A DNA stretch of 64,000 nt from Harriotta raleighana (Eukaryota), in NCBI GenBank assembly GCA_050575255.1, contig JBNZDD010013670.1, positions 310,001 through 374,000 of the forward strand. The letters are read 5' to 3'. Positions 3,421 to 45,777 of this stretch are shown here, piece by piece (position 1 is the first letter of the stretch; the number at the start of each line of letters is the position of its first letter). A program made the position numbers and the translations under genes. A model generated the notes under the pieces. That model was not told where the DNA came from, ran no database searches, and saw only the letters and a list, made by a program, of their open reading frames with translations.

Positions 3421-3494
3421 CATGGGATGGCCACTTGTCTGCGTGTATGATTTCAGTAATGAAATCAGAAAGTTTTATTGCTGTAACACTAATA

Positions 3495-5520: not shown

Positions 5521-5674
5521 TTCGCAGCAATGGTCCTTTGCATTTTATTTTCTCCTCCGACAGGCTACGTGAAGCAACATCCTTCAGGATGACTACACCC
5601 TTTTGTGCTGATTGCTGAGCCCAGTCCTCTCTCCGTCGACCCATCCTCAGATTTGTAACAATATCACATCGGCC
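5521..5674 (-). CDS. CNBD2-like exon 10 (GRCDIVTNLRMGRRREDWAQQ...KGPLLR)
   Basis: Acceptor ttgccttatcag|; 'KS|GRCDIV' parallels CNBD2 'SKGSCEVL'. The best donor is A|GTAAGA (phase 1), but this 3' boundary is less certain. Confidence 0.75.
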
Positions 5675-8600
5675 CTGATAAGGCAAGAACAGCAGGCAAT
5701 TAAATAATGGTAATGTTCAATAAGATGAGAGCTTCACTGAAAGGTGCCTCTTCTTACTATCTATCTTGCAAAATAGCCTCAAAAATTATAAAAGTCAGTA
5801 GAATCAAAGAATTGTACAGCATTTAGGAGACCACTTCACCCTTGTGCCTGCTGTCTCCCTTGCCCTTTCCCCACATCCTTTTGAATTGTGTGCAAAGGCA
5901 TGAGTGTGTTACTATCACAAGTATGTGATACTGTTTGATGCTATTGGAGGGTCAAAATTCTGGTAGACAAACATTGTTAATCATGGTTAATCAAGAAACA
6001 AGAATGTAAGAATGTAAGAATTAGGAGCAGGAGTAGGCCATTTGACCCCTCGAGTCTTCCCTACCATTTAATAAGATCATGGCTGACCTTCTATCCCAAT
6101 TCCACTTACCTGCCCTATTCCCCATTTCCCTTAAGCTTTTAAAAATCTAGCGATCTCAGTCTTGAATATGTTGTTTTAAAATTCTAATGGCTTTTTTGTA
6201 CTACTTCAGATATACTCAGCTATTCCAGGAGAGGCACCTATCTTCCCAAACACTATCCAGCAAGTGGGAATTAGCACAGCCGATCAGCATGGCAAGCAAG
6301 GAACCCTCTGAAAGGTAACAAAATGCAAAATACAGCAGATGCTGGAAATCGGAAACAAAAACTGAAATCGCTGGCAACCATCAGCAAATTAGGCAGCATC
6401 TATGGAGAAAGGAAAGTGAGTCAACGTTTCGGATCCACTGTTCTGATGAAGGGTCATGGACCAGAAACATTGGCTCACTTACCTTTCTCCATAGATGCTG
6501 CCTGACCTGCTGAGTATTCCCTCGTAGGCCAGTTGAAGGTTACAAGATCAACAAAGGTGAAATGGGAAAGTTGGCAGCATAGAACCTGAATGTCAATTAG
6601 CCAAAAGATGCCAGAGTGCATTAAATGTAATCCAACAACACATGGCAGGATACAAGTGATTAGGGATCAGGGATTCTGATATAGCCGTTTGCCACCAAAT
6701 TATTCCACCCATTTTGAAGGAAATTCTTTTATTTACTTATGAATCCTAAATATCTTTCTGAAGTATAATGCTATCCTGCCCAGTGCTATATGATTTCTGA
6801 AGTTTGATTTCATGCATGTAGAAGAACTGATTTGGGATTGAAGCACATGAGTGTGTCTTGTCTAGCAAATCAGATTCCCTTAAAATAGCTTCTTGCGGAA
6901 GATGTGAGTTGGAAAAAACAGTAAAATTTCTCTAGATTGTCAAAATCCTCCCATTGTGAAAGGCGCTATATAAGTATAAATTGTATACAGCCTACCAAAT
7001 AAATAAACAAACAAATAAATCTAGCGCTTTGAGACATCTAGAATACATGAAATGTGCTATATCAAATGCAAGAATTATTATTAAATCCGAACAAAATCCT
7101 ACAATTCAATACATACACACATTAATCTTAATGGATCAGAACAAGTGTATGTGCTCTAAGACACTGTCCTGCATAGAGGGGGCGAAATAAGTGTGAGGTG
7201 TTGTAAGGACAAATGCACTGGTGTACATAACCCTGATGAGAATATGTGGTAATATAGTAACAAAGATCCTAACAAAAGCAAAATACACTTGGATTTATTG
7301 GGATTATGGCAATGAAGATTGCAGTAATGTTACATGACTATGGAAGATCAGAGAATACTTACTGATTTGACAACAACTATGAAAGAAGAGTTGCGGCTTT
7401 CAAGAATGACTGCTGTTCCTGATCTGTGAGAGGGAAGAAACGTGACTGCATGTACTGTGCAGAAAATAATGATGTACAACTAATTTCCAGGTTCTCTGTG
7501 GGCAAAATTGTTTTTATTGACTATGCAGTTGAAATGAATTCTCTAGCTACCTCTAACAGAGGGATAATGACCACCCACCTTTCTCCACCTAAAAGGATTG
7601 GGGGATTGCTGTGCTTTTGTGTCATACTGTCAAACCACACACTGTTTCCTGCACCTTCATGTGTGAAAGAAACAGGTATTTGCTTATATACAGTATTTCA
7701 CTTTCTCTGCCTATAATAATCAATAAGGAGCCCTGTAGCTCACTAGTTTACGCACTTGCCCCGCAAGTGAGAAATCTGTGTTTGGTTCCCGGCAGGGCTA
7801 AACCGTAGGCAAATTTCCTTACTCCACACACTTGATAATAATTCCTCAAGAAAAAAACCTAATACCAATTTGGTCGCTCAATCCACGACTGTTACTGTGT
7901 CACTGGTGTACACAGTTGGTGCAATTTGTTTTATGTTCTATCCAGTCAGTATTTCAGACACACATTACAAATTTTGTACTATTTCAGATTTATACATTCT
8001 ATAATCTGGTAATAAAGATGCTGCTTGCCTCCCCTAACAATTTTCATATCAGATCTCATTTTTTCAAATGTTCTCCTTTCCTGAGCTAGTAAATCACACT
8101 GGGAAATGGCTCCACAGAAAGCAATCGTCCTCCAGTACTGCACCTAAATTGGCCATTCTTCATGGATAGACGAAGATGGACATTGAATGTTTGAAGTGTC
8201 ATGAGCCATGTGGAGAGGTTAATCAGGGCCAAGCTTATTCCTGTGCTCACCCAATACCTGCACAAGCACATATTCCAGCAGGAATCACTGAATTACTGCT
8301 CTAGTTTCCTCAGGTCAATTGTAGCTTTCCAACTGTGGCCGTAACTCAGCATGTTACCAATGATTTTTTGGAAAATCACAGATTTTCGTCTGGCCAGAAT
8401 CCATGATTTGTTCTCTTTGTGCAAAAATAATCTTGAAATGTATTATTTACTTCCAAATGTTAGCAAGGTTGAACCGTCGGGCAGAAACAATACAGAAAGG
8501 TGAAAATGATGAAAAGAGAGAGATTGGAAGGAACTGGAAAAGAGGAAATAAACATTTAATGGATTGAAAATGGAAGGAGGAAAACGAACCAGCAGAAAAA

Positions 8601-11600
8601 CAAGAACAGAAATAGGAATTGAACAGGAAGAGGCAGTGGAATTAATCTACTTGAAGAATTTGCAGGTAGAGGGAGATCAACAACCCTAACAACAAGATTA
8701 CACTTGTATAGCGCCTTTCACATCAGGAGGACATCCCAAGGAGCTGGACAGTCATTGTTTCAAACTGGGCTGGGGTCGGGGACTGAGAGGGTAGAGGGAA
8801 AGCGGGGGATTTGAGGTAACCGATGTGACCGTCAAAGAGGAGGGTCTTGAGGTGGGACTTGAAGGAGCCAGGGAGGGGGCGAGGTGGAGGGACTGTGGGA
8901 TGGAGTTCCAGAGTTTGGGAGCAGAGTGGCTGAAGGTTCATCACCCACCAATAGTGGGGCGGGTGGGTCAGGGGACATGGAGCAGGCCGGAGCCTGCTGA
9001 GAAAGGAATAGAAAGAAGACAATAAACAACAACTCGCATTTATATAGCACCCTGATTAATCTCTCCACATGGCTCATGACACTTCAAACACTCAATGTCC
9101 ATCTAGCCTATCCATGAAGAATGGTCAATTTAGGTGCAGTACTGGAGGACGACTGCTTTCTGGGATGCCTTGAATAAACAGGAAGACAGAACAAACAGGT
9201 GCTGCCAATCACAAACAAAACGTAACATCAGCGATGATTTACTGGTTATAGAAAAGTTACTAAGTCTTTTTTATTTTGATCAGTTGGGATACATGTTCTG
9301 ACACATGTAGAAACCCATCACCATGGTTAAGAGTATCCAAATCATATACTGTAATAATAATCCTTGCATTTTGATATCCACCTTCACATGGAAATTCCCA
9401 GGTCGGGAATGGAATGTGCACGTTCTCCCTGGAGCGATGTATTCCTGCTTAACTAATTCCAGAGTGTTACATTATTAACTCATCATTATTAAAATCTTCC
9501 AGTGAATTAAAATGCAGTATGGTTGACACTAAACATTTGCATTGACCCTGGTTATTACAATTAAGAGTTAAAGTTGTTTCTGACCTGTAATGTCGCAGCA
9601 AACAACTGTGGGAAAGAAGCAGGAGATTTTCCAGGGACCAAGGTGTGAATATTGGGAGGGACCTGCAGGAACATTCAAATAAAAACAACTGAATAATTAC
9701 ATGCATTGTAGTAAATCTTTATAAGACTTGATAAGCATTTTATTGTGTCAACAAACTTGTTCAGTTTTATTTCTTACTCCTCCCTATGAGGACACACAAA
9801 GACACATAAAGACACCCAAAGTACAGAAATTTCCCAAAAGATTTTTTACCAGCTAATAATTTCAGTCAGGTTTCTGAATCAACTATGAACAATGAAACAA
9901 GATTATAATTAAAAAGTTTGTTCCAATATTATTTATTTTCTGTGCATTTCCTGGATTTTACTTGATATAATTTTAATCCTTGCATTTGAAATAACCTTAT
10001 GATATTATTGGCACATCTCCAAGCATTTTGTAGATTTTAATGTGAAGTATAGTCAAGTAACTCCATTTAATTATTCTTTTGAACACAAGATGTGTGTCCT
10101 GTACTTTGAAAATTGAGGTTTTTTCGCCGCTGGAGGGAAAAAGAGGCTTGTTGTTTAATCAGATTTTCTCAAGGACACATAAAAATGGTGAGTGTGCATC
10201 ATGCTTCAGGAGTCAGCCAACTCTGCATTTCGGAAATTTGGGGAGCTCCACATTTGGTCTGTCCATTCAAGTTCATCGTCAGCCTTGTTCAGCTGATAGC
10301 ACTCCCATCTCTGGGTGAGAAGGTTGCAGGTTCAAGCCTGATATCAGAACTTGGTACTCACATAGTCTAGGCAGACCAATACAATACTAGGGGACATGCT
10401 GCATTGTCGGGAGTACCATCCTTTGGATGTGTAGGATCGCTAAGTTTTCCGTATGTTGAATAAGTAATCCTCAGACACCGAGTGAATTGAAAAGTTCGTC
10501 TTTATTACAGTATTGCAAAAAGTTACAATACAGGTGGTTCTCTTATGGCTCGAGCAACTACAATACACACGTGCGGGTTTATATACCCCTACTTAGCCAA
10601 TAATATGCTTCAAAAGTAACCTCATGACCTCGTGCCAGTTCACTGCCCCTTAGAGGTATGCCCTTATATGGGCTCACTATTCCCTCAGTATCTTCTTTCT
10701 TTGTTCTCATCCTTACGGCCTTGAGACTACTCTCAAACTGGCTTGATCCAGTTCTAAACTGTTTTCTGGCGATTTTTAGTTTTAGATCCAAAATAAAGTT
10801 ATACACAGACAGATTCCTCCAGATGAGACATTAAACCAACATCTTTGTTTGTCCAGTTGGATGCTAAAGATCCCATGGCACTATTTGAATAGGGAGTTTC
10901 TCCAGGCTTCCTAGCCAACAGTTTCCCAAATAAAATTGCTCACTCACTTCACAGCTGTTGTTGGGTTGTTGCTGTGCACAAATAGGTGCTATATATTCAT
11001 CAAATATCCTGTAAATCCTGCAAAGCGCTTTGAGATGTCCTCCTGATGTGAAAGGCATCTCATACAAATATTAGGATTAAAAATCTTCTGGTACAAATCT
11101 AAAATGTCATGTTTTTGGCTAACAGTTGTTCATTGTATCATTGCGATATTAGAATACTGCACTGGACTGAGATAAACCTGCTTCCGAAGGACTGTCTTAA
11201 ATTCTTTGAAGCACAGTGTCAGTGTCAAACCATTTCCAAGCACCCTCTTGTGGATCAAAAATAAAAAGCATGCTATAGGCACAGTGAGAACCAATGTAGA
11301 AACTGTATCAGGCACCTGATAAAAAGAAAGGGAAGTTTAAAGGGTGTGGGGAGGCAGAGGAGAGTGTGATCACCTAGACGGTTCATGTGTGGAAAACCAT
11401 CAAACGTGATGTGATACTTTTGTTGTTTCATTCTATGAATCTGTTTTATTGATGAATAATGTACTTTCCATCAAATCCAATGAAAAAAAATGGGTTACAT
11501 ACTCCGCTCTAAACTTCATCCCTTCCTTTGGGTTCATTACCTTCAATGCTGGTGACTGGGAGCCAACAATGAGAACAGAAATGGCCATTTTGTTTAGCCC

Positions 11601-14600
11601 AGTGCTCTGTTCACAGGAATAAACCCAGGTTGACAATTGGAATAGTTTGGCAAATTGTAATTAGCCATTTTGCAAATATCAGAAATTGGACAGCGTTAGG
11701 TACAGTATTTGCAAATGGAAGTCACAACTAGCTGCTTGAGTTCTGTTTGAGCATATCACAAATCAGAATCCAGTACTACACAAATGCTGTCCCTTTCGAG
11801 CCATTGGGAGACCAATGATCCCACGAGATGTAGGAAGTTGTCCATCAGAGACGGTGCTATCCATAGTCTGATACATTAGTTCTTCATGACTGATCACCCT
11901 TTTAGGAACCTTTCATTTCTTAGTCTAAAACAATGACTGTTCAGCGCTTTAGGATGTCCTCCTGATGTGAAAGGCGGCATACAAGTGTAATTCTGTTGTT
12001 GTTGTAGTATTAATTACTCATTACATCTGTTAGAAAGTTTCCAGTTCATTTGCTAATAAAAGAGCCAGTATCTCTGACACCAGAATTGGTTCCTTGTGAC
12101 TTGTTTATATTTCTGTGGCTTTTTAGATTTATACCTCCCTTTGAATCCGAAAAATCAAGTGAACACATAAGAACATAAGAATTAGGAGCAGGAGTAGGCC
12201 ATTTGGCCCCTCAAGCCAAGTCTCGCCCTTCAATAAGATCAAGACTGATCTTCTAATCTAACTCCACCCACCCGCCTTATCCGCATAACCCTTAATCCCT
12301 TTATCCATAAGAAATATGTCAATATATGAATATGTTCAAGGATTGAGCATCCACAGCTTTTTGGGGCAGAGAATTCATAAATTCATTCCCCAACTCGGTG
12401 CAAAAAGGCTGACCTCTAATTTTAAAACAATGACCCCTAGTTATAGTTCCTCCAACCAGGGGAAACTGTCTCCCACTGTATACTCTATCATGCCCCTTAA
12501 TAATCTTATAGGTTTCTATAAGATCATCTCTAATTCTTCTATAGTCTAGAGAATATAGGCCTACGTTACTCACCTACCCTCATAGCTCAAAACCCTCATA
12601 GAATCATAGAATGTTATGGCACAGAAGGAGGCCATTCGGCCCAAGAACTAACCTAGCAAATCTACACTGCACCCCCTCTAAGGCAAGTATCTCCTCTCTT
12701 AAATAAGGAGACCAAAACTGCACACAATACTCTAGGTGCGGTCTCACCAGTGCCCTATACAGTTGCAGTAAGACTTTCTTACTCCTATATTCTAACCCTT
12801 TTGTAATGAATGCCAACATACCATTAGCCTTCCTAGTTGCTTGCTGTACCTGCAAACTATCTTTTTGTGACTGGTGTACAAGGACACCCAAGTCCCTCTG
12901 AACGCTAACACTATCTAGTCTTTCCCCTTCTAGAAAATAATCTGTTTTTTACTATCTAGGTGAATAACTTCACACTTCCCCACATTATATTTAATCTGCC
13001 ACCTTCTTACCCACTCACCTAGCCTATCTATATCTCGTTGTATTTTTTTTGTGTCATCCTCAGTGTTTATTCTCCCTCCTAGTTCAGTATCATCCGCGAA
13101 TTTAGATATTTTAAATTCGATGCCTCGTTTAGATCATTAATATAGATTGTAAATAGTTGAGGCACAAGCACTGTTCCTTGTGGCTCTCCACTAATCACAT
13201 TCCACCAATCTGAGAAGGATCCATTTATCCCTACTCTCTGTTTTCTTACCGTTAGCCACTTTTCAATCCACACGAGTATATTGCCTTTAATTCCACGGGC
13301 CCTAATCTTGTCAATCAGTCATTTATGCGGCACCTTATCGAATGCCTTTTGAAAATCTAAATATACTACATCTACTGATTCCCCCCCATCTAACCTGCTA
13401 GTTATGTCCTCAAAAAAAACTATAAAAGATTTGTTAAGCATGACTTCCCTTTTGTAAAGCCAAAACCCCTTTTTTGTTTAAAATATTGACGTTACATTGT
13501 ATTTCATTGCCATCTAGTGGACATACTGTAAATGTATTTCTGTCTAAGTGAGTTTAAAAATATTTTCATTTCTTCACTACCACATTCTCATTATAAATAT
13601 ACTTTCTTTATAAACTCTGCCATTACCTCACCCCTAAAGCCGCTGAAACCCTCATCTACGTCTTCGTTACATCCCGCCTCAACTATACAAATGCCTTGCT
13701 GGTTGGCCTTCCCAATTCCTCCCTCCATAGGCTGCAGATAATCCAGAACTCTACGGCCAATGTCCTTTACCGTTCCAAACTCTGTGACCCCATCTCCTCC
13801 ATCCTTGCCTGACTCCATTGCCTCCCCATCATTCAGAGGATCCAATTCAAGAGCCTGGTCCTCACATTTAAAGCGCTCCAAAACCTCGCCTTACCCTACA
13901 TCCGTAACCTCCTATCTCCTTAGCGACCAGCCCACCTCCTCTGGTCAGCATGCTCTGGCCTGCTCCACATCCCCCGACCCATCCGCCCAACCATTGGCAG
14001 GTGAGCCTTCAGTCACTCTGCCCCCAACCTCTGGAACTCCATCCCCGAAGTCCCTCCATTTTGTCCCCTCCATGGCCTCCTTCAAGTCTCGCCTCAAGAC
14101 TCTTCTCTTCGATAGACCCATCGGCAATTCCTCCCACCCACATGTCCTCAGCTCAGGTGTGAAGCAGTGTCTATCCAGTGCCTTGGGACTTCCTCCTGAC
14201 TTGAAAGACGCAAAACAAATGTAATTTTGTTGTTGTTGTTTCTTACCCCTTTTTTGGGGAAGCGCTTGGCTGTTATTTTCTTGATCCTGATCAGCGTGAG
14301 AAAGAGGCCGAGAAAGATCCTTTTCCCTTATCTCCCACACTGTTCAGATTCCCGTTCTATCTCTGTGAATTGCTTTGACATTTCCCCTACATGAAGAACA
14401 CTTTAAAAGTCCAAGTTGTGCTGTTGATGTGGCCACTAGGCAGACATTTCAGATGACTCGCTTTTCCTCCCTCCCTAATTGCAGGATGTACTTTCTCATG
14501 CCTCAGTCATCTCAGTCATGCCTTTCTCCAACATACAAGCAAATATTGGAAACTAAATGTTGAAACTTACAGGGTGAACCCATGTCCCACCATTCTATGC

Positions 14601-17600
14601 TCTCACAAACAATTTGCAGCATAGCAATGTCCCACAAACAGTCATCGAATGATAATTTTTTGTTCTCTGAGGGATTATTGGTCCAAACCCCAGGAGAAAC
14701 TTTCTTTTCTTTTTGAATAATGGCAGGACATCTTTAACATCCACCTGAGCCGGGAAAGAAAATCCCGGTTTAACTCTGATCCCAAGAAAATCACCTCTCA
14801 CAACTCAGTACTGTCCCTACAGGACAGACAGCCTAGTATGTGAGCTTAATTTACTGCTTTTGAAGGAAAACAAGCAGTCATTTTATGCAAAGCAAGATTC
14901 CATAAAAGCAATTAAGGTAATTCAGAATGACCAATTCATCAAGAGGGTGGCTGAATGTATCGTCAAAGAGGTAGATCATCAGGTGGGCTTTGAGAGAGGA
15001 GAGGGAAGGCATGAAGCAGAGGGATTTGGAGAGGCAGTGCCAGAGGTAAAGCACAAAGTCACTGAACCAGCACCAAAGGTAGAGTAGAATGAGGGGCCTG
15101 AAACAAGCTAAAGTTAATGGAGTGGAGGAAGTGAGCAGTAGAGTAAGGTCACAAACAATCCCAGAAATAGGACACTGCAGAGATTTGAAAGTGAAAACAA
15201 GGACATTAAAGATCTCCATTGAGGGTTAAGCGGCCAGTGAAGAAGCCGGTTGAGGTTTCGCGTGCGGGGCTCACAGAGAGGATATGGGCTGCAGAGTTCT
15301 GTATGACCTGGAGTTTGTAGAGAGTGGAGCTGCTTTACAGGATACATTGGAAAGTGTAATGACTATGTTTTCTGTAGTCACACATGGCAGCCAATTTGCC
15401 CATAGCATCAAATTGTGTCAGGAGCACAAAACATGGTGTTGAGGCCAATTGCCATTCCAGCACAATGTTCAATTTTTCAATTTGGCTTTGTCTTGATAAA
15501 TATATCATGTAATTTAAACTGCACAAATTGTTAGTTATGTTGTCAGTTTAAATAAATGTTGACCTCATTTAGCAAGGTGCACAGGTAGCGAGTGCCACAC
15601 TGGACAAATTCAAGGGGTTATAATAATGCATAATAATAATCCTTGCATTTGATATACTGTAGTGCCTTATCACATCTTCGAGACATTTCAGAATATACTG
15701 TGAATTGCCTGTATATTTTGTGGGTGAAACGCGGCAGCCAATTGCGCACTATAGTGTCCCACAAACCATTGTGGATTGAGTGATTTATTTATTCACTTTA
15801 CTTAACGTAGTTGATTGCACATTGTCATTCATCTTTCTCTTATGCAAATTTACATTCTGGCATCTACAGATTTTTCAATAGTATTTTCAGATAATGAAGA
15901 TGTCATCTTTTGTCAATTGATAGCATTCATGACTCAGGGATGGAAAATCTGCTGTTTGTTTTATGTTGTAGGAATAACGATTTACAGTACTGTACCTCAA
16001 TAAATCAATGATTCCGTTGTATCGTTGCTGAAGAAATTTGTCCAATGTAGATGTAAAATCCTGAGAATTAAAATCAATAGAATGTGGTTAAAAAAGATAG
16101 TTTCACCAATCGTGCAACAAATCTTCAGGCAACATAAGTGTGCCAGCCTCGCTTAGTTAGTAGCACTCTTATCTCTGAGTCAGAAGGTTGTGTGTTCAAG
16201 CCCCAACAACAAGACTTGGAGTCCATCTAGTCTAGGTTGATACTCCAGGGAGTGCTGCATTTTTGGCATTGAAGTCCTTCCAATGAAATATTAAACTGAG
16301 GTATAATTTGCCTGTCCAAGTGGATGTTAAAGATCCCATGGCATCATTTAAAAAGAGAAGGGAGTTTTTCCCAGTGTCTTGGTCAACTATCACCCAAATA
16401 AAATTGGTCACGCGTTGCATTGCTGTTTGTGCAACATTGGTGTCACACTCTCCCACAAAATACACAATTACAGCACATCTCAGTATATCTTGTGAAGTGC
16501 TTTGACAGGATGAGATGCTATATCAAATGCAATGACTATTATATCACGTTATGTAGTAATTGTACCATCTCTCACCCCTCATATTCCCTCAGTGTCAATG
16601 GCTACCTGTGAAGCTCACAAAAAGAATTGTCCTTCTCTTCAAGGCTATTATAATACACAATTATTACAGTAAAACCTTGTTTATCTGGCACCCACAAGAT
16701 TTGGTGAATGGCGGTTAAACGGTTTTCTGGTTAAATGGATTTTTAAAAATGTTTTATTAATTTTTTTTTAATTAAAAATTATTTTAACACAGTAATAACA
16801 GATTACCAGCTCCCACCCTGTGCAAACACAGGAAGCTGCCGTCCGCACACCGCTAACCCTTAGCAAGGGGAAGGCGCGGTCGATTACTATGAAGCCTTCT
16901 TGTGAGGTATTTTGAATTGATTGAATAGCCTGGACTTGCAGAGAGAGTGAGAGTACACACACACACACACACACATACACACATACACATGTAAATGTTG
17001 AACAATACTATATAAATAATAGACTAAATACACTAATAACAGATACTATACTAACAGAATATTGTATTAGTACTTTATAAGTTATACTTAACTTCTGCAA
17101 GTTAAAACTGCATTTTTTTTAAAAACGGTAGTATCGCGAGTTTTGAAATGAGAGAGACTGANNNNNNNNNNNNNNNNNNNNNNNNNNNNNNNNNNNNNNN
17201 NNNNNNNNNNNNNNNNNNNNNNNNNNNNNNNNNNNNNNNNNNNNNNNNNNNNNNNNNNNNNNNNNNNNNNNNNNNNNNNNNNNNNNNNNNNNNNNNNNNN
17301 NNNNNNGAGAGAATGTGAGAGAGAGACTGTGATTGGGGGAGAGAGAGAGAGACACGCCCCCTTTGGAGCCCATGCCGCGACTTTTAAAGGACCCAGAACG
17401 AGTTTAAACCCGACATTAAACGCGTCACCAGATAACTTCCGGTTAATCGAATCGGGACTTTTTTTGAGATGGCGGTTGAATGGGTTTTCCGATTATTCGA
17501 GTTACAGATAAATGAGGTTTTACTGTATTTTGAATGTGTTTTACTCACATTTTTCTACATGAGGATATATTTAACAAGAACAGACCTTAAACATCTATTT

Positions 17601-20600
17601 TGGGTGTTGAACCTCATCTATTGCCAGGGATTTGACATTTAATACGACACTGAAAATGAAATTAAGCCTAAAACTGAGGAGCTAACTTTTAGTATTGAAA
17701 GCTGAGTTTGAAAACGACATCTGCTTCCACAAGAAACCTGTTCTAGAGCAGTTACACAGCTTTCCATGATTTTTTATAGGGAAATGGAAAACAGATTCAA
17801 ATTGGGAAAGAAAGTTTTATAATAGTCAACCCAATCCAAAGGATTGCCGCCTTTCCATCACTTCCGCGGTAACTACATCCAATCACTGCGATAACCTGGC
17901 AGGTGGGTTCCTGTAATTGGCGCCTTTGGTATTGCTCATGACCTTGACACTAAGGGAATAACAATTGTGGTGTTAAATGCTGCACATTCATCTCAAAAAT
18001 GACTTGCCTTTAATTACTGGGAAATTCAATAGCCTGATTATATTAAAAGCATACAATTTGTAGAACATAATGTAGGTTAGCGTGACCTGTGGAACACTTA
18101 ACAAGAGGAACAATACATAATAAATTTATATTTATGTAGCCCTGTTCATTTTGTGGTGGGGAAAGAGGGGAGTCTCAAAGCACTTAACAGAATTGATGGT
18201 TACACAAACTTTGGTTGCTTCAATGGCTTCACTTGCGTGGGTGAGAGAGAGGCAAGGTGAACCAAGATTCCTGCTCCTGAATGCCTGAGTGAACCCAGCT
18301 GGAAAGGTCATGTGTGTATGAGTGTCAGAATTGAAGTGTCATGTTCATGACTCCTCTGGCTACATAGGCTTCTGAGACTTATTTTCCAGCCTCATATTTA
18401 AAGAATAATCATTTGGTCACGGTAAGGAAGCAATTCATACATCAGGATGCATCAACTTCATCAGGAGAGGAGGAAAGGATACTGGAGGAGGGAACTAACT
18501 AAATGTCCTTATACATGTTTAGTCAACAATGTTTTCCATTGTTACTATAGAAGTCCAGGAAACCAAACCATATCTTGTAACTCAATATCTTGAGTACCCT
18601 GTAAAACGTCATACTCCAGTTCAGATACTGAACACCTTTTCAGTTAATTAGACTTTAATGGTTCAGTAATATTACTCTGGAGTGACAGTGACACATAGTA
18701 CAATGCTTATGGATAATTGCCAACTCTGGTAACCATAGCTCCCCAATTCAAACACATACCGCCTTGTTTATCAATAGGAGCTCCACATTAGTCTTGCAGA
18801 CAATAGTAGCAGGACGCTTTTTGTTGGTCAGAAGAGTAGCTTCCTGAAAAATAAACATTTGTGAAATCTGAAACAGCCAACAGCAACATGAAAGAGCATT
18901 AAACTGACTCTGTAAAATTGTGAAGCAGAAATGGATCTCACCCCAAACAAATCACCTTCCTCAATTTCATGCAGAATTTCTGTTAGGGGACTTCCAACTT
19001 TGGCAGAGAATTCATTTGATTTTGCTGCCATTTTACCAGTAAGTACAAAATAACATGATTCAGGTTGGTGACCTTCACGCACAATGACTGTTTGTGTTTC
19101 ATATCTAAAATGAAAGGAAAGTACATTGAATAATTAAATTATTTATTTTGATTTGGTATCTCTGATTTCTCCCCTTTCCCAATAACTGTTGAAGGTGCCT
19201 GAGAGAAATACACGAACACACAATTTTACATTTTATAGCTATAAGATGTAGGAGACATCAATGATATGATGTATCTAATTAATTGGCTGAACATAAGAAC
19301 ATAGTCATCTGCAGAATTGGGAAAGACTATTGCCAATTACTGAGTTAAGCTACTTTCTGCTGTAGCACTCATTGGTAGTATCAAAAATGACCATGATAAA
19401 AACCTCTAACCAGCTTCAAGCTCAAACATTGTGCTAAAGCTGGGGTGAGTTGGGTATCAGCCTTTGGCAGTCATAATGTTTCTTAACACATTTGCTGTGA
19501 TCATATCAAATATGTGTGAGTCAAATTGAGTTTACTGTACTTTGTTCTCACAACCAATGTGCTTCACAGAATATACTGTAAAGTTATTTGAATGAATATT
19601 TTTGAAGGGAAACGCGGTGGCCAGTTGTGCATAGCAATGTCCCACAAACGTTTGTGGATTGAGTGACCACACTTTTTTATTACACCTGGAAAAGCGATCC
19701 TCCAATTAAAAAGCAATCAGCCCCATTTCCCGCTTTTTCAAAATGCAAGGATTATTATTATTATTATTATTAAATGAACAGACGCATCTGGAGTTAGGAA
19801 ACATGTAGTTTCATCCAGTGTTTTGTCCTGCCTGGAATCAAACCCTGGTCCTCTTGCTTGCAAGGCGACTAAAGAATAAGCCACATGACTCCACCATTCA
19901 AGTTTAGCTCTCAAGGAACACATTTAACTGTAATCAAAGAACATGCGACCTTTTGCAATTGGCAGCTGCATTATTGATTAAATTATTTCTGCATGTTGTT
20001 TCACTTACTGTTGGTACACTGCAGCTTGGCAAACCTCTAACTGAACATTATGGGGTAAGACTTGAAAGGTTTGGTTCTTACGTAAGAGTGATTGTATCTT
20101 TAAAACAAAAGATATTAAAATAACAATATTTGGAATATTTAGGGACACGAAAAAAAAGCTTTTCAGTACATAATCACAGCTACTAAAGTGACAAATAAAG
20201 ACACAAGCAGAGCTCCAGCCTCTTTACTACAGTTGTGCTGACAATTTTAATGGAGAAAGATTAGTTAAAGGACATAGGATTAGAGTGCTAAAGTTGAAAA
20301 ACTAGGTTAAAAAGAGAGACAGTGAATTGAAAAGTGTGTAGATGACTATGGATAGGGTACATATATCATAAAACATGAACTGATATTTGCATCAGTAAAA
20401 TATTTAGAAGGTTGACAAAATGGTTAAAAATAATGAATAAATCTCATTCACCATTAACTCAAACAATTTTACCATTAAAAGTTGCATCCTGATAACAATT
20501 AATAATTTATTAACATTTAGTCGGAGGTCTGTCAGTTTGGGCTATTACCAGTGCAAGTTCCTGTTTGCTTCGTAGTAAAGGAGAAACATAGAGCAGGCTT

Positions 20601-23600
20601 CTCAACTTTGCAGAGTCTCTTTCCTGCAATAAAACAAAGTGGATAAATACTATAACTGGTAAGCAAAAGAGCTCAACTGGAGATCTTTTCATAGGTATTT
20701 TAGTATCTCACTGAAAAAAAAATCTGACACAGAGCTAACAGGCAGATTAAATACAATAATAATCCTTGCATTCAGTATAACACTTTAACATGTTGTCCAA
20801 ACATCTCAGAGGTCTAAATAAGGAAACAAGGGCTAAAAATTCCATTGAGTTTTACTTGGCACTGTGTGATTATAGTGGGAAATTCCATTACAGGCCAACA
20901 TTGCTAAAGGTGATGCATATAACACTCTTTACTCAAGTCTGCTTTCAGGAAGACATCCAAAACTATTAATAGAATGTATTCAATGGAATGCCCATCTCAG
21001 CACAATTTTATTTTATTTTATAATCACTGTTGTATGATTTTAAATCTGGTTATGTTTTTTTCCTGTTTTATGTTTTCACTCTGCTGTTTTATTTGACTTT
21101 ATTCTTTTATCTTCTGTTGGCTACTACTCTTTCCCCTTCTTGCTGTTTTACCATATGCCAAATATCACAATTGCAAATGACAATATTCACAAGAGATTAC
21201 AAGAGATGCTTGGATGAAGAAAGCCTTTCTGCATATTTGATCTCATCTTTGCAGAATACCCACCCTACCCATCATTTACAACAGGATGGTATTTGGCCAT
21301 TTGGCTGCTGAGGACTGGATGCCCTATTGAGAAAAGTACGTGAGCCACTTAAGCAATTCCCTTCCAGAAACATAACATTAACTGATAATGGCGGGAGCGG
21401 GTAGGCCAGATGAAATGGAGGGAGAAGTTAGGATGAAATCAGCCCATGGCGATCAGTTGAACCACTCTGATTTACAGCATCAAGCTGTTCCTTAAATGAC
21501 CAGCCATCTGTGTAAATAAATACCGTCTGGTTCCTGTCCTAAAATTATCTTTCACAATACTAAGATTGTCTACTCTTTGTATGAAAATAATTAACGGAGG
21601 ACAGAAGAATAATAATACAATACTAACATTTTTCTTCTTTGTAAAGCTGTGAATGTTAAACAACAGTTCCTTGTCAAGGACTGCTTGCTTTTTTAGAAGA
21701 TTTGCAACCCACTGTGTCACCTTGGTCTTGTTTATATACCTGAAAAACAAAATATGAATTCTGTATCTTAATACATTTTATTTTTGCATTCATGCAAAGC
21801 AAAAGTACCAAGCTTAAGGGAAATCCTGCCTGGTTGGATGGGACCGCAACGGAACACATAAAGAAGGGGAAAAAAGACATTTAAAGCCATGAAGGAAAAT
21901 GGCACAGACAAAAGATGGATTCATTACCAGAAGGCATGTCAGGATTTTAACAAAGTTATCAGAATGGCAAGAAATAATCATAAGAAAATAAGAATATAAG
22001 AATTTGCTGGGCGAAAGACCAAGGTCCATCGAATTTGTCCTCCACCATCCTGGCAGTCATAAAACATGTCGTATCCCAAACTATATAATGTAAGCAGAGA
22101 TATTATTATCTAATTTGTTCTTCTGTTCAATCAAGAAACACACTGCCACTAGAACACAAACTTACTAAGACTCTTGACAATGTTCAAGGGGGTGTTTCTC
22201 AATGGATTTGTGGACCGGAACAGGTTCATGGGTCATAGATGGGTCTGCACTAATGTATGCTTTTAATGTAACTATGAACTCAAATTGCTATGTTGAGCTT
22301 GAATCTACAACTACTCTGACCCAGCTGCAAGACTACCATCAACTGACCCCGCCTGTCACAAATGTACTATTTAAGAATTTTCCAAATATCAGTTCAGTAT
22401 TATACGCAAATATTAAAACCATTTCAGTACTTTCTGGTTTCTAATGTACTAATGTTATAAGTGTTCAAATATAATAATAACAATACTTGCATTTGATATA
22501 GCACTTTTCACATCCTCTAGACATCTCAAAGTGCTTCACAAAATATACTGCAAAATATTTCCGGATCCAGAACTTTACCATTATTATGATTATTTATTAG
22601 CAAGAATAAGTTCTCCACTCAACAGCAGTACTTTAGGGGAAAGAATAACCAAATTGTGGTAGGTTATTGATCACACTGAAAAGGTTTCCTTGGTTCAGCT
22701 CCATTAATCAAAAACAAAGGAAGATCTTACGAGATATGATGAGAATACCAACAGTGCAGTACATCAGATTATATAATCATTTGCAGTGAAGTACTTTACT
22801 CGTGCCCTAAAATGTTCCATTAGTGAGCAAATTACTTTAATCCTTATAAACAAAATTAAATATTGTTAACATTTTCTTGCCCAGGAACAAATAAATCACT
22901 GTAGCGGGTTATTGATGATTTAATTATTCATACTGGTGTTACTCCTAAGAAACTGTGCTCTTTACAAAGAATGTCTCAGAGTTCCCCCAGTACTAACTTC
23001 TTTATATCAACTTGATTTGACAACTCTGGAGACAATAGATGGATTTTTTAAATTCCGTGGTGAATTCCTTATGACACATTTCCCTTTTTACAACTGGTTT
23101 CAACATCTAATAATATTATGAGAACATTAGCTAGAACATTTCTATCAGAAATTAATGAGACTATTTTCCAGAAATAACAACAACTTGCATTTATAAAGCA
23201 CCCTTTACACAGAGCCCTGACAAAATAAGCAGTTTGGATAATAAACAATCACACGCCAGCTCACCAATTTAACAATGTCTGCTCCGAAAATCCTCCCTAT
23301 CTCAGTCCCCAAGTCCTCCCGAACTCAGTCCCTCCCTATCTACAGTATCCCAATACATTTTCTGGAGTCTCCAAACCTTGTTTCTTGCTAATCTGCATCT
23401 AATACTTTCTAGAATTAAGGTGAATTCCTCCTAGGAGAGAATGTACATTACATTCCAATAAACATCACTGAGACTTCCTTTCAGAGGTGGGATGCATGGA
23501 ACTTTCAGTTTGGTTTGGATACTCTTAAGCATGGTGATGGATTTCTACAAGAATCATATCCTCCTGAGGAGGGGTGGGGTAGGTCAGCAGAGACTCCATG

Positions 23601-26600
23601 GAGCTGAATTGGCTACAAAGTGACATGCCTCACAACAGAATGTTGGAATCGAGCCAGCCTTCTGTGGTGGACTCGGTAGTCCAGTTTGTGAGATAGGCAG
23701 ATCCGTAGTATTTCAGGATACTGCTGATACAGTCCTGTAGCTCAGTGGGTAGAGCATTTGCCTTGCAAGTGAGAGATCTGAGTTCAATTCCAGGCAGGGT
23801 GAAACCTTGGGCGAGTTGTCTTATTCGACACACCTGATAATAATCTCTCAAAAAGAACAATAATAAGTTGGTCATTTCAATCCACAACTGTTTGTGAGAC
23901 ACTGCTGTAGGCAATTGGTGCCACGTTTCGCCCACAAATATATAGTCAATTCACTTTATAGCATATTCTGTGAAAAACTTTGAGACACCTAGAAGATGTG
24001 AAAAGCGCTGTATCAAATGCAAGGATTATTATTACTATTATTATACAATACAAAATTACATTTGTATAATGCCATTCATATCGGAAGGATGTCCCAAGAA
24101 GCTGGGTTACAGCATAGCCAGCCCGGCTCATCGGCAGGACTTGGAAGGGCAGACAAGTCACTGGAGGCAGCTGTTCAGTTCCTGTTAATCCTACAAGCCT
24201 AAACCCTAATGCTTAGGGTGTCCAGGCTAAACAAGTAGTGTTTACCGAACAGCAATGGCAAGCTATGCAGTTTTAGCTGGTTAGATTCCAGCAGTAACCC
24301 AACCTGCGCCTAACAATTTCTGGAATTAGATAAGCAGACTGTTCAGAACCAGGGAGAGAGTGTGCAATTCATCTCAACAATTTATCTCTGGGATTTCCAT
24401 GTGTGGGTGAGATGCATGAAAATCTCAGCTTGGTTTGGATACTCTTGGTGATGGGTTTCAGCATGTATCAGACCCCTCAAAATGGAGGAAAGTGCAAGTA
24501 AATGGTACTAAACATATAGCTCCTTCAGAAAGTTGGTACAAGCACAGTGGGCGGTAATGATATTCTATTCCGTTCCCTCCAACCTGCTATCCTGTGTTAA
24601 GGACACAATATAAGTGTCTGTTGTTGTAAAATTCTAAGATTCTTTCTCTATCACACACCAGAGAATAGGAGATCCTACAAATCTCACTGTATCATCACTG
24701 CCTGGACTCGCTAACATAATTTCCTGGGTGAAGAGGTGGAGAAGAGGCTGAATGATCTGCTCTTTGGTAGCAGTCCCCAGCCGGACCTTTCGTGTAAGAA
24801 AGTGACCATCCTCTACTCTCCATATCTCCAGCTATATGATAAACATAGAGAAATTACAATGGGGGCATTAGGGAATCAAAGTTTCATCCTCTCATAGCAT
24901 TGGAGAATCAATGGCTTCCTTTCATTTTCTAACTGTAATAACAACTTACATTTATATAGCTCTCTTCATGCAGCAAAGCCAATGATGGACCAAGTGGATT
25001 TGTACCACATTAACAGTTAAGCGGAAAAAGTTACATATCAGTTTACGAGGGATTTACCATTCAAGCCCTCCATTTCAGCTCCTTGGAACATCCTCCCAAC
25101 TTGAAAGGCACTCTATAAATGTAATTTTGTTGTTGTTGTTATTAGTTGGAGCAAACATTGAAAAAGTGGCATGAGGATTGATCCAGCTTGTCTTTGTTAT
25201 TTTGATGAGCCAAAAAATATCAGATACTCCTTGCATTTGTAGTTTTTCTCTTTCAAGTATGCGACTTGTTATGGAATTAAAATAATCTTATCAATAATTA
25301 CATTGAACATACTGAGAGTAAAGTGTCATTTACTTGATAACTGGAATCATTTCAAATGCCAAAAGTAAATTATCCATAACCTTCAACAACAACAAAAAAG
25401 CCTTCTTAAGATCCTGACGTGATTCAATGGGATGCCATTTAGTAAATCACTTCTGTTTTCCTCACCCATTCTATTCCATCCATTCTCAGTGTCAAGATAT
25501 ATTTGACTAATTTTTCCTTTTGATATGGTTCCAAACATGCTATCACCCTCCGGTTTCTTACACAGGTGGCCATTCTTCATATGGGTAGACAATGAGTGTG
25601 AGCAAACTCTGATCAGTGTGGGATGACTTGCATTTCTTTGTATTAATCTTTGTATTAATTTACTTGTAGTCAGCCCAGGTGTTTACCTCCACTCCCCTCA
25701 CACACACACACAATCACTTACACACTCCCACTAATAACTCTCAAATATACCTACACAAAAAGAATAGCAAAGAAACATACACACACTTACTGAAAGACTC
25801 ACACATTTACAGAGTCACACATTCTCATACACTGAAACTCTCAAAGGGAGACACACAACTCTCTGTACACACACATTCAGAGGATCACAATCCCTCAATG
25901 TTGAATCTTATTCTGGGGTTGGATTATTTCCCCTTTAGAAATATGCACACAATCTATGAGAATAATAATAATAATCCTTGCATTTCATGTAGCCCTTTAT
26001 CACAAATTCGAGACATCTCAAAGCACTTCACAGAATATACAGTACTGGAAAGTGGATTGACTATATTTTTGTGAGCAAAATGCAGCAGCTGATTGCGTAA
26101 AAAATATAATACAGTAATAATTTGGTCACTCAATCATGTGGATTGTGAACAAATTATTATTATGATTATTATTATATATTTTGAAGGGATTATTGTCCCC
26201 TGAAAGCAATCTGCCAATCAATTAACAACCAGGTTCCTAGTTACTGCTAGGTAAACAGAGGTGGGTGAAGTAAGGAAATTCGTCTAACATTTCACCCTGC
26301 CCGGGAATTGTACCCAGGTCCTCTTGCTGGTGAGGCGAGTGCTCTAATCACTAAGATAGAGGACTCCACTTGATATTGCTTGAACTAGTAACTGAAACAT
26401 GTTCTCATAATGCAAGTTAGTAATCCAGTTTGGCTTCGTATAGTTTAAAAGATTAATTTAATTAGCATTGATTCACAGCCTTTTTTGACAGATATTTTAC
26501 CCTTGTTCATACATATCTGGTTGTTGTCTTTCCTGATATTGACCACAGCTACCAATTTAAATCACTTGGCTGGTACAGTATATAGTTGCTATATAGACTT

Positions 26601-26832
26601 GTAAATAATAATATAATCCTTGCATTTGATATAGCACTTTATCACTTTGTCTAGAAATCTCACAGGAAACACTGATGTGACTGTATTTGGGCTACAAACT
26701 TTTTTCTTGCTGTTTTGTGTTGGATAAATCACAAACTGAAAAAAAAACACAGTCTCACCTCTTCAGAGCCAGGTTCATCCCGCAGATAGTTTTTATGATC
26801 CTGGCAATTCTTTTGAAAGTTCCCATTTCCAT
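5521..26832 (-). CDS. CNBD2-like cyclic nucleotide-binding domain protein; gene model with 10 coding exons in the window, 3'-incomplete
   Basis: Ten exons with AG/GT boundaries and matching phases (74+112+75+89+163+84+65+78+61+154 = 955 nt) join into one open frame: MEMGTFKRIARIIKTICGMNLALKRYINKTKVTQW...YETQTVIVREGHQPESCYFVLTGK...EIEEGDLFGEATLLTNKKRPATIVCKTNVELLLINKADF...LRSLPIFTPWSLENL...SFIVVVKSGRCDIV. This is one cNMP-binding domain followed by the start of a second, the CNBD1/CNBD2 architecture. Orthology is not established, so no symbol is given. Confidence 0.88.
6318..6520. repeat. Palindromic element with a hammerhead-like core, probably Penelope-like pseudo-LTR derived
   Basis: 50-nt inverted arms 6381-6430 and 6464-6513 (44/50 complementary); CTGATGA at 6443-6449, GGTC-ATG-GACC hairpin, GAAAC at 6464-6468. 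Confidence 0.6.
7363..7423 (-). CDS. CNBD2-like exon 9 (SGTAVILESRNSSFIVVVKS)
   Basis: Acceptor tttcttccctctcacag|, donor |GTAAGT, 61 nt, phase 2 to 0. Confidence 0.85.
8690..9005 (-). mobile_element. L2 LINE 3' fragment
   Basis: SFKSHLKTLLF and the same L2 tail as the other copies. Confidence 0.82.
9585..9662 (-). CDS. CNBD2-like exon 8 (SLPIFTPWSLENLLLLSHSCLLRHY-R)
   Basis: Acceptor tgttcctgcag|, donor AG|GTCAGA, 78 nt, phase 2 to 2. The 'LPIF..W' motif opens the second CNB domain. Confidence 0.85.
10281..11070 (+). mobile_element. tRNA-derived, Deu-domain-like SINE interrupted by a solo LTR
   Basis: Head tagcactc...gaaggttgcaggttcaagcc, body taaagatcccatggcactattt, L2-like tail aagcgctttgagatgtcctcctgatgtgaaaggc. 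A homologous uninterrupted copy lies at ~16139-16545. Confidence 0.72.
10430..10821 (-). mobile_element. Solo LTR, 392 bp (Gypsy or ERV1-like)
   Basis: TGTAGGA...TCCTCCA termini; 4-bp target duplication GATG (10426-10429 and 10822-10825); minus-strand TATATAAA (10585-10578) followed by AATAAA (10506-10501). Confidence 0.82.
12165..13460 (-). mobile_element. CR1-clade LINE 3' fragment, with a short second CR1 tail nested at ~12597-12645
   Basis: RT peptides [54 protein letters not shown], TRGH; (TTCTTATG)n tail. Confidence 0.9.
13610..14240 (+). mobile_element. L2 LINE 3' fragment
   Basis: Same family as 2091-2650; SFKSRLKTLLFD; (TTG)n tail. Confidence 0.87.
15996..16060 (-). CDS. CNBD2-like exon 7 (DFTSTLDKFLQQRYNGIIDLL-R)
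   Basis: Acceptor ttttaattctcag|, donor AG|GTACAG, 65 nt, phase 0 to 2. Hinge/C-helix starting 'DF'. Confidence 0.82.
16139..16545 (+). mobile_element. tRNA-derived, Deu-domain-like SINE
   Basis: tagcactcttatctctgagtcagaaggttgtgtgttcaagcccc head, taaagatcccatggca core, tail atcaaatgcaa..tattat. Confidence 0.72.
16667..17525. mobile_element. MITE of the CAGTAAAA family, spanning an assembly gap
   Basis: TA|CAGTAAAACCTTGTTTATC ... GATAAATGAGGTTTTACTG|TA; interior closely similar to 55016-55666 and 63394-64000. Confidence 0.82.
18760..18843 (-). CDS. CNBD2-like exon 6 (EATLLTNKKRPATIVCKTNVELLLINKA), phosphate-binding cassette
   Basis: Acceptor tttatttttcag|, donor |GTATGT, 84 nt, after a 98-nt intron. 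Completes the FGE...R.AT cassette. Confidence 0.92.
18942..19104 (-). CDS. CNBD2-like exon 5 (YETQTVIVREGHQPESCYFVLTGK...EIEEGDLFG)
   Basis: Acceptor tttcattttag|, donor |GTGAGA, 163 nt. Carries the cNMP beta-barrel motifs 'VIVREG...YFVLTG' and 'EGDLFG'. Confidence 0.92.
20009..20097 (-). CDS. CNBD2-like exon 4 (IQSLLRKNQTFQVLPHNVQLEVCQAAVYQ-Q)
   Basis: Acceptor ttttgttttaaag|, donor |GTAAGT, 89 nt, phase 0 to 2. Encodes the N-terminal helices of the CNB domain. Confidence 0.85.
20549..20623 (-). CDS. CNBD2-like exon 3 (ERDSAKLRSLLYVSPLLRSKQELAL)
   Basis: Acceptor ttttattgcag|, donor |GTAATA, 75 nt, phase 0 to 0. Resembles the 'KPSWRTEDEI' segment that precedes the CNB domain in CNBD2. Confidence 0.8.
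21628..21739 (-). CDS. CNBD2-like exon 2 (YINKTKVTQWVANLLKKQAVLDKELLFNIHSFTKKKN)
   Basis: Acceptor tttgtttttcag|, donor |GTTAGT, 112 nt, phase 2 to 0. Confidence 0.8.
23728..24042 (+). mobile_element. tRNA-derived SINE, full length
   Basis: A box tagctcagtgg, B box gagttcaattcc, tail atcaaatgcaaggattattatt. Confidence 0.82.
25964..26370 (-). mobile_element. tRNA-derived SINE
   Basis: Reverse complement of the same family, from tail aataataatccttgcattt to head gctctaatcactaag..ggactcc. Confidence 0.78.
26759..26832 (-). CDS. CNBD2-like coding exon 1 (MEMGTFKRIARIIKTICGMNLALK-R)
   Basis: ATG at 26832-26830; donor AG|GTGAGA in phase 2 matches the next exon. The frame stays open upstream to an acceptor (tgcatgcag|, exon start 26872), so the true start codon is uncertain. 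Confidence 0.72.
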
Positions 26833-32400: not shown

Positions 32401-32527
32401 ATGTCAGCGTTACTAAGAGATGAGTTGAAGAAGAAAATGTTTAAACCGAATGGGGATCGGCTGTTTGCTGTGGTAGAAATAATGACATCAACACAGGAAG
32501 ATGCAAGGTATTACCTTTGTACTTCAG
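32401..32527 (+). CDS. EXOC1L: EXOC1L coding exon 1
   Basis: ATG at 32401; MSALLRDELKKKMFKPNGDRLFAVVEIMTSTQEDARYYLCTS; donor G|GTAATA, phase 1. Confidence 0.9.
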
Positions 32528-44330: not shown

Positions 44331-44333
44331 GGA

Positions 44334-45653: not shown

Positions 45654-45777
45654 ATGACTGCGATCAAGCATGCTTTGCAAAGAGATATCTTCACTCCAAA
45701 TGATGAACGATTGCTCAGCATTGTTAATGTCTGTAAAGCGGGCAAGAAAAAGAAAAACTGCTTTCTGTGTGCTACAG
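45654..45777 (+). CDS. EXOC1: EXOC1 first coding exon
   Basis: Exon starts 45646 after atcag|; ATG 45654; [41 protein letters not shown]; donor G|GTACAT. Confidence 0.96.

Follow-up and report, generated by a model that had tools for sequence, protein, structure and literature searches.

An unnamed vertebrate gene beside EXOC1L encodes a probable cAMP sensor related to the sperm protein CRIS

The known vertebrate receptor families for cAMP and cGMP amount to a handful, and the lists of them are drawn from human and mouse. The nearest characterised relative of the gene described here is the germ-cell-specific protein CRIS (CNBD2), which is soluble and has a domain for the binding of cyclic nucleotides (CNBD) as its sole recognised motif. 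CRIS has been reported from every mammalian genome of 2012, and to be missing from birds and zebrafish. Mouse Cris lies on chromosome 2, and its CNBD is encoded by exons 5–7, exon 7 being longer than 134 bp; the paper in question covers the targeted exons, not the full gene map. In a hemichordate and an annelid, ciliated cells are marked by genes bearing the name cnbd2, which may or may not be orthologous to the present gene. CNBD1 is presumably a member of the same general family, to judge from its architecture. Among solved structures, the best matches of the family are the tandem CNB domains of the PKA regulatory subunits, PKG and EPAC2 (sequence profile E 3e-24; fold E 5e-15 at 10–20% identity).

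The window, i.e., the whole 64,000-nt stretch of DNA analysed, contains a real, intact protein-coding gene of a cartilaginous fish that belongs in this company. Splicing gives a minus-strand gene of ten exons, with 955 nt (318 codons) free of stops and canonical dinucleotides at 19 of 19 splice sites (AG at 9 internal acceptors, GT at 10 donors). Its features are:

26833..26862, minus strand: possible N-terminal extension of 10 in-frame codons from a GTG (tblastn; open frame)
26759..26832, minus strand: exon 1, first in-frame ATG, N-terminal helix (splicing; profile i-E 7e-5)
21628..21739, minus strand: exon 2, 112 nt (splicing; profile)
20549..20623, minus strand: exon 3, 75 nt, helices preceding CNBD-A (splicing; profile)
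20009..20097, minus strand: exon 4, 89 nt, first helices of CNBD-A (splicing; profile)
18942..19104, minus strand: exon 5, 163 nt, CNBD-A beta-roll to Phe170-Gly171 (splicing; PF00027 E 2e-5)
18760..18843, minus strand: exon 6, 84 nt, phosphate-binding cassette from Glu172 to Arg181-Pro-Ala-Thr (PF00027 E 0.002)
15996..16060, minus strand: exon 7, 65 nt, hinge and lid helices of CNBD-A (splicing; profile)
9585..9662, minus strand: exon 8, 78 nt, first helices of CNBD-B (splicing; profile)
7363..7423, minus strand: exon 9, 61 nt, first strands of CNBD-B (splicing; profile)
5521..5674, minus strand: exon 10, 154 nt, CNBD-B strand and start of the linker, ending in phase 1 (splicing; profile)

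A family profile made from 43 database proteins, with no input from the window, has precisely these exons as its top 10 among 2,835 six-frame segments. The ten matches are collinear with the profile (i-E 1.6e-18 to 0.02, the next-best segment reaching 1.3), and the spliced 318-residue product scores 421 bits against it, so that the ten spliced minus-strand exons and roughly 318 amino acids put forward in a first-pass annotation are confirmed. The cNMP_binding domain named there was also found: exons 5 and 6 match consecutive parts of the Pfam profile PF00027 (24.9 and 18.5 bits, respectively), each on its own below the curated cut-off of 27.5 bits. The other eight exons matched no Pfam family when searched exon by exon. 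The gene is cut off by the window, with later exons beyond position 1; homology and profile searches of positions 1–5520 gave no exon 11 or later above noise, and full-length orthologues mostly have about 460–570 residues. The last exons of this copy, being out of view, could be broken.

At the 5' end, homology extends past the ATG by 10 further upstream codons and reaches a GTG at 26862, with a possible acceptor preceding it; the true start codon is therefore uncertain. The extension has an open frame and is homologous to the first residues of the shark and skate orthologues, residues 1–31 of the Mustelus protein covering 26862–26761 in tblastn; a splice from an exon further upstream may lead into it. 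A GTG where the shark and skate models begin with Met, together with 3' exons beyond the window, is what a recently dead pseudogene whose lesions hit the exons out of view or the start codon could look like, but the open reading frame, the canonical splice sites and the intact cassette make this extremely unlikely, as does a terminal branch of 0.39, similar to those of sharks and skate (0.28–0.52).

The exon borders recur across the family. Of the 18 large indels among 103 database proteins, 17 have ends that coincide with exon junctions of the window (0.13 per end by chance), corresponding to about 9 of 10 separate events. Exon 3 is skipped exactly in a python isoform, exon 8 in a skink model, and exon 6 in isoforms from mole, crocodile, gharial and bamboo shark, where the cassette is removed; the exon 6 borders of the window are common to a placental, the mole.

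Records of orthologues come from almost every group of jawed vertebrates, including sharks, skate, bichir, sturgeon, amphibians, reptiles, five marsupial species and six placental species, among the last squirrel, bats and star-nosed mole. The window protein is 58–66% identical to the skate and shark proteins, 39% to that of squirrel, and 33–66% across the RefSeq loci. A 42-row tree tracks the species tree and gives a support of 100 to placentals, to marsupials and to cartilaginous fishes; this is a quick tree with support by SH-aLRT only, and it omits five rows that are fragmentary or aberrant (paddlefish, bamboo shark, an 899-aa model, crocodile and gharial). The lamprey outgroup, a sequence that may belong to any of the paralogues, is 22–30% identical.

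Under LOC numbers, RefSeq has predictions of the gene for dozens of species, e.g., skate LOC129697394, Tasmanian devil LOC111721368, opossum LOC103097375 and Myotis LOC132227423. Shared exon borders, the species-tree topology and the devil neighbours identify these loci as orthologues. They are automatic predictions with inconsistent names, mostly "CNBD2-like" or "uncharacterized", and two are even called cGMP-dependent-kinase-like. Literature searches returned no paper on the gene. With such predictions available, the earlier description of the gene as hidden was overstated, and its being kept in this lineage but probably lost in mammals does not hold in view of the breadth of the orthologues and the eleven marsupial and placental species. 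Protein searches gave no orthologue match in birds or zebrafish, at low sensitivity: the profile search regained one of six of its own query clusters, so that absences in these searches are weak, and with exon 5 as the query a word-index search returned 0 proteins and an exhaustive search 16. Neither a true CNBD1 nor a mammalian CNBD2 sequence was among the matches of these protein searches. Marsupials and some placentals retain the gene, and others, with human and mouse among them, probably lost it separately.

Two further genes lie upstream on the opposite strand:

32401..40321, plus strand: gene taken to be EXOC1L, three coding exons (32401-32527, 37199-37329, 40064-40321), 171 aa, ATG at 32401
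45654..61180, plus strand: gene taken to be EXOC1, first coding exons, extending past the window (ATG at 45654, exon translations)

The name EXOC1L for the 171-aa gene agrees with the gene order in the Tasmanian devil, and the product has a weak Pfam match to Sec3-PIP2_bind (E 0.013). In the devil the order is CLOCK, PDCL2, LOC111721372, NMU, LOC111721368, EXOC1L, EXOC1, CEP135, and the orthologue LOC111721368 lies on chromosome 6 between NMU and EXOC1L (minus strand, 39.19 Mb), with EXOC1 on the plus strand at 39.29 Mb. The position next to EXOC1L, already noted in the first reading of the window, is thereby shared with a marsupial. Region lists for cattle, goat, chicken and pig show no named gene adjoining EXOC1L; these lists mostly omit LOC genes, that for chicken stops at EXOC1L, and none of the four is counted as evidence of loss.

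In the window, the CNBD-type gene and EXOC1L are arranged head to head. Since this arrangement is conserved in the devil, and EXOC1L turns up in several sensory-neuron papers, the protein might be a cyclic-nucleotide sensor of somatic tissue, for instance of sensory neurons under control shared with EXOC1L, instead of sperm or cilia. We regard this as quite improbable. A distance of 5.6 kb, devoid of CpG islands, separates the two start codons, CRIS is specific to germ cells, and divergence is fast (48% identity between the devil and squirrel orthologues), as is usual in reproductive genes.

Very probably, the gene represents one unnamed orthologous group of jawed vertebrates, located between NMU and EXOC1L and distinct from both CNBD1 and CNBD2/CRIS. 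Locus and intron pattern, rather than a tree holding true CNBD1 and CNBD2 sequences, set it apart as what is probably a third CNBD paralogue. The first-pass proposal of a third member of the CNBD1/CNBD2 type thus stands as the most likely assignment, not as a settled one. Devil CNBD1 is found at 566 Mb on chromosome 1, i.e., on a different chromosome from LOC111721368, which argues against identity with CNBD1. In contrast to the three-exon CNBD of mouse Cris, the matching residues 95–226 of the window protein cross four introns and occupy five exons, with exons 6–8 measuring 84, 65 and 78 nt, and the locus beside NMU and EXOC1L differs from that of Cris. The CNBD also starts about 90–110 residues earlier than in mouse CRIS, the family differs from CRIS by a proline following the cassette arginine, and it is patchy in placentals, where CRIS is reported to be universal. 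The two proteins share the spacing of 11 residues between Phe-Gly-Glu and Arg as well as a Phe near the lid position, present in most orthologues, and, as for CRIS, searches gave no match in birds and zebrafish.

A true CNBD2/CRIS (or CNBD1) orthologue that was moved or misnamed would account for the RefSeq name "CNBD2-like", for three reptile records called CNBD2 without the "-like", and for the Atlas chordate cluster named CNBD2, which scores 0.97. It would also fit the 0 entries for CNBD2 in the devil tables searched. EPB41L1, the neighbour of CNBD2 in human, is on devil chromosome 2, whereas the present gene has its orthologue on chromosome 6. Set against this reading are the chromosome and exon structure of mouse Cris, its Phe277-Gly-Glu compared with Ile-Gly-Glu at 185–187 of the squirrel protein, the window's exon 6 borders in the mole, and placental records not named CNBD2 in spite of the reported presence of CRIS in every mammalian genome of 2012. 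Such an orthologue is very unlikely.

Unlike PKA regulatory subunits, PKG and EPAC2, the family has no kinase, exchange-factor or docking domain, and its second CNBD is split. In Pfam searches of six orthologues, five have cNMP_binding alone (58–65 bits against the cut-off of 27.5), and no kinase, exchange-factor, docking or membrane-channel domain was found in any; the short, exon-skipping gharial protein has cNMP_binding at 26.8 bits and weak sub-threshold cupin matches. A structure model from 43 rows, used in place of a discarded 6-row model with pLDDT 38, has two ordered CNBD halves and disorder at residues 348–445. Alignment and model bear out one complete cNMP-binding domain (A) and the start of a second (B) in the window. 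Domain B is without the binding Gly and Arg, has no conserved cassette, and is split by a linker of roughly 100 residues.

The cassette region of domain A includes Phe170-Gly-Glu and Arg181 in the window protein, with the same Phe-to-Arg spacing in CRIS and HCN2. From cartilaginous fishes to placentals, the Arg is present in 40 of 40 filled rows and the Gly in 44 of 44, with Glu or Asp in 39 of 40. At the Phe170 position, 35 of 44 rows have Ile or Val, and the FGE motif often reads I/V-G-E/D. A Phe occurs near the lid position in 36 of 44 orthologue rows, and no Arg is conserved in the lid helix. In 30 of 40 rows the cassette Arg is followed by Pro, whose position corresponds to the ligand-contacting Thr592 of HCN2. 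In PKA structures the phosphate is bound by the backbone NH at this position, and proline has no backbone NH. Because of this Pro and the Ile or Val at position 170, ligand binding by domain A could be weak or altered. These features, and the cassette-skipping isoforms, would agree with a domain A that binds weakly or not at all in a protein of the same orthology, serving as a scaffold or as a sensor of a non-canonical signal. Trypanosome PKA-R subunits, which bind nucleosides according to the titles of their entries, indicate that the fold can switch ligand, which would allow for another purine. The invariant Arg and Gly are, however, hard to explain without a phosphate ligand, and we find this account unlikely.

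On balance, we favour as the somewhat more probable reading a gene of an unnamed family whose soluble product senses cAMP, through a single site, in sperm or motile cilia. The predicted protein, of the length given above, has two tandem cyclic-nucleotide-binding folds, of which domain A keeps the ribose-binding Gly-acid pair and the phosphate-binding Arg. Domain A would bind one cyclic nucleotide, most likely cAMP, with an affinity that we infer to be micromolar from the missing lid-helix Arg and the usual Pro after the cassette Arg. Binding would shift the helices of hinge and lid, which continue into domain B; the latter, interrupted by a disordered linker and without a conserved cassette, could form a protein-binding output together with its C-terminal helix. 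By analogy with CRIS, and in line with the testis or cilia role suggested in the first-pass annotation, the protein may act in spermatids or other cells with motile cilia, where cAMP might through it influence how the machinery of the flagellar beat is assembled or tuned. The several database isoforms that lose the cassette with exon 6 count against a sensor.

With a fold of a familiar type, and with predictions of the gene already present in dozens of RefSeq annotations, the finding of a conserved vertebrate gene for a probable cAMP sensor related to CRIS is of moderate value. A conserved extra receptor may have been missed so far because human and mouse seem to be without the gene. Many of the database entries called "CNBD2-like" are very probably something other than CNBD2, with possible consequences for what has been published on the occurrence of CRIS. 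The gene is also a possible gene-loss marker in sperm evolution. A wider proposal, rather doubtful as a whole, is that of an undescribed vertebrate effector family beside PKA, EPAC, CNG/HCN, POPDC and CRIS, in which the cassette Pro would alter ligand choice or affinity and the split second domain would be the output. Sharks, squirrels and bats would mark the span over which the family was retained, with repeated losses in birds, teleosts and many placentals, and human 4q12 would still contain, in the interval from NMU to EXOC1L, a unitary pseudogene that has escaped recognition; if so, the losses would track changed control of sperm or ciliary beating. A strict tie to the CatSper-sNHE-sAC module was also considered, and is weakened by amphibians, which are without the sperm exchanger sNHE yet keep the gene.

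The gene under study is real and old: a CNBD1/CNBD2-type gene of jawed vertebrates that has no name of its own, is very probably the third of its kind, and is also carried by marsupials and some placentals. RefSeq holds predictions of it under LOC numbers for dozens of species, and searches of main-text, chiefly open-access literature showed no paper on it among the matches listed. Its ten minus-strand exons in the window (26832 to 5521) measure 74, 112, 75, 89, 163, 84, 65, 78, 61, and 154 nt, with AG at every internal acceptor and GT at every donor. Only 4.5% of the span is exonic; the spliced exons comprise 955 nt, or 318 codons with zero stops. When a profile of 43 database proteins, with the window left out, was run as a chance control against 2,835 six-frame segments of at least 15 residues, the top ten matches were the ten exons, collinear with the profile (i-E 1.6e-18 to 0.02; next match 1.3), and the spliced product scored 421 bits. 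The in-frame splicing claimed by the first-pass annotation is borne out. Searched exon by exon, Pfam cNMP_binding matches exon 5 and exon 6 over adjoining stretches of its profile; the remaining eight exons returned no family.

Homology with shark and skate extends 10 codons upstream of the ATG, to a GTG at 26862 that may sit right behind a splice acceptor or whose G may close one, and the start codon is therefore uncertain. In this stretch of in-frame homology (26833–26880, minus strand), the GTG takes the place of the initial Met of the shark and skate models; an intron may interrupt the start codon, or a downstream ATG may serve instead. The reading frame leaves exon 10 in phase 1, and 1–5520 of the window yielded no further exon. 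Since the Tasmanian devil orthologue has 15 exons, several exons of the gene lie outside the window.

On the plus strand lie two neighbours, which we take to be EXOC1L and EXOC1, in the same order as in the devil:

32401 to 40321, plus strand: EXOC1L, ATG at 32401, three exons, 171 aa, intact
45654, plus strand: ATG of EXOC1

The finding of such an intact three-exon, 171-aa EXOC1L (32401–40321) in a cartilaginous fish makes the EXOC1L–EXOC1 tandem pair older than the jawed-vertebrate split. A table in the supplement to the devil genome paper gives the order on chromosome 6 as CLOCK, PDCL2, LOC111721372, NMU, LOC111721368, EXOC1L, EXOC1, CEP135, with LOC111721368 protein-coding on the minus strand at 39.19 Mb and EXOC1 on the plus strand at 39.29 Mb (PMC7614631). 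LOC111721368 is the devil orthologue of the window gene, placed between NMU and EXOC1L and arranged relative to EXOC1 as in the window. In humans, CNBD2 neighbours EPB41L1, and no gene of the present kind is known at 4q12. The devil tables searched place CNBD1 at chr1:566 Mb and EPB41L1 on chr2, and CNBD2 is absent from them (PMC7614631). A somatic missense change in the orthologue, Asn174Lys at chr6:39,194,420, is listed for two DFT1 tumours (PMC7614631 Table S7A), and is probably a passenger.

The gene is very probably a paralogue distinct from CNBD1 and CNBD2, as three indirect tests (synteny, introns, and names), used in place of a direct tree, agree; the matches of the searches contained neither a CNBD1 nor a CNBD2 sequence of a mammal under that name. 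Among 103 database proteins, 17 of the 18 large indels end at most 2 residues from an exon junction of the window, where the chance per indel end is 0.13 and the 18 represent about 10 separate events, 9 of them fitting; the mole protein, in which exon 6 is skipped exactly, is among them. In mouse Cris (CNBD2; chromosome 2), the cyclic-nucleotide-binding domain (residues 202–333) is reportedly encoded by exons 5–7, the last of which exceeds 134 bp (PMC3854790). Four introns interrupt the matching stretch in the window, where the exons beyond the phosphate-binding cassette measure 84, 65, and 78 nt. The same paper reports CRIS from all mammalian genomes of 2012 (PMC3854790), and since placental orthologue records are nevertheless named “CNBD2-like” or “uncharacterized”, the names point to a separate gene. 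Against a separate gene, three reptile records carry the plain name CNBD2 and an Atlas cluster so named scores 0.97. A review describes CNBD2 as having no paralogues (PMC7054227).

An exhaustive protein search with exon 5 returned 16 proteins, and the ten looked up include skate, two sharks, reedfish, bichir, crocodilians, skink, and opossum. A profile search gave 8 proteins, and the opossum protein 35 matches (5 marsupial, 4 placental, 3 turtle, 14 squamate, 7 amphibian, 1 shark, and 1 lamprey). Identity to the window product is 66% for sawshark and Mustelus, 58% for skate, 45% for devil, 39% for squirrel, and 30% for lamprey. A quick tree of 42 rows, with 5 fragmentary rows excluded, agrees in topology with the species tree: the window joins the cartilaginous fishes (support 100), bichirs stand with sturgeon, and the other groups are amphibians, marsupials (100) together with placentals (100), and turtles and squamates, the lamprey forming a long branch. 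This placement makes the window the DNA of a cartilaginous fish, possibly a chimaera. The first-pass proposal of a third family member next to EXOC1L can be upheld with high confidence as regards a separate gene, but its supposed loss in mammals is refuted by orthologues in marsupials and, in the placental clusters, in grey squirrel, three Myotis species, Miniopterus, and star-nosed mole. Birds, teleosts, monotremes, primates, and mouse-like rodents do not occur among the search matches; the searches are lossy (the profile search recovered 1 of its own 6 query clusters), and the gene may have been lost patchily.

Pfam matched cNMP_binding alone in 5 of 6 orthologues. The structure predicted for the sawshark orthologue from an alignment of 43 rows has good confidence across most of residues 95–347 and 446–563, with 348–445 modelled as disordered. 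By fold it matches the tandem domains found in PKA regulatory subunits and in PKG, to which profile comparison adds EPAC2. The first domain (domain A) in the window contains Phe170-Gly-Glu and Arg181, spaced as are Phe277/Arg288 in CRIS (PMC3854790) and Phe580/Arg591 in HCN2 (PMC12982507). Over 45 jawed-vertebrate rows, the cassette Arg is found in 40/40 filled rows, Gly in 44/44, and Glu or Asp in 39/40. Pro directly follows the Arg in 30/40 rows, a position that contacts the ligand in HCN2 (PMC12982507). The lid carries Phe in 36/44 rows and lacks Arg at the site closest to CRIS Asn330, which the CRIS paper links to low affinity (PMC3854790). In the second domain (domain B), inspection of 43 rows shows no Gly-Glu and no conserved Arg, and the linker splits this domain in two. 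The lamprey protein shares the split second domain but is only 22–30% identical and carries Asn behind the cassette Arg; it looks like a further paralogue within the wider family. The skate model LOC129697394 ends without the second half of domain B (after residue ~326), which is present in sawshark, bichir, and tetrapods; either the prediction is faulty or skates have truly lost this part. In the mole, crocodile, gharial, and bamboo shark models, exon 6 is skipped exactly and the cassette lost in frame, which may reflect a conserved non-binding isoform or gene decay in those lineages.

In the simplest working model, domain A would be a one-site, low-affinity cAMP switch, with movement of the lid relayed to the non-binding second domain, which would hold partners. 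By analogy with CRIS and cnbd2-named genes, the site of action might be sperm precursor or ciliated cells. CRIS is reported to be confined to sperm precursor cells and to pull down IFT172 and KIF2A (PMC3854790), and in one hemichordate and one annelid cnbd2-named genes are reported as markers of ciliated cells (PMC13554239, PMC10380512). Amphibians retain the gene but are reported to lack sNHE (PMC6660944), so it does not belong to the CatSper module in any simple way.

Other elements in the window are the following:

16665–17527, 55014–55671, 63392–64000, and 3493–4618: copies of a non-coding repeat whose short terminal inverted repeats end in TA
44100–44370: patch rich in GC and CpG that contains an ETS-like motif at 44194
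12300–13450 and 2700–3350, minus strand: decayed retroelement fragments, inside and beyond the introns of the gene

The retroelement fragments are presumably CR1-like together with another LINE-like reading frame. The GC-rich patch adjoins an assembly gap and a 36-bp tandem repeat, and is likely the EXOC1 promoter. The copies of the TA-ended repeat are 79–85% alike and look like a Tc1/mariner-type miniature transposon, and the ends of the copy at 3493–4618 look nested.
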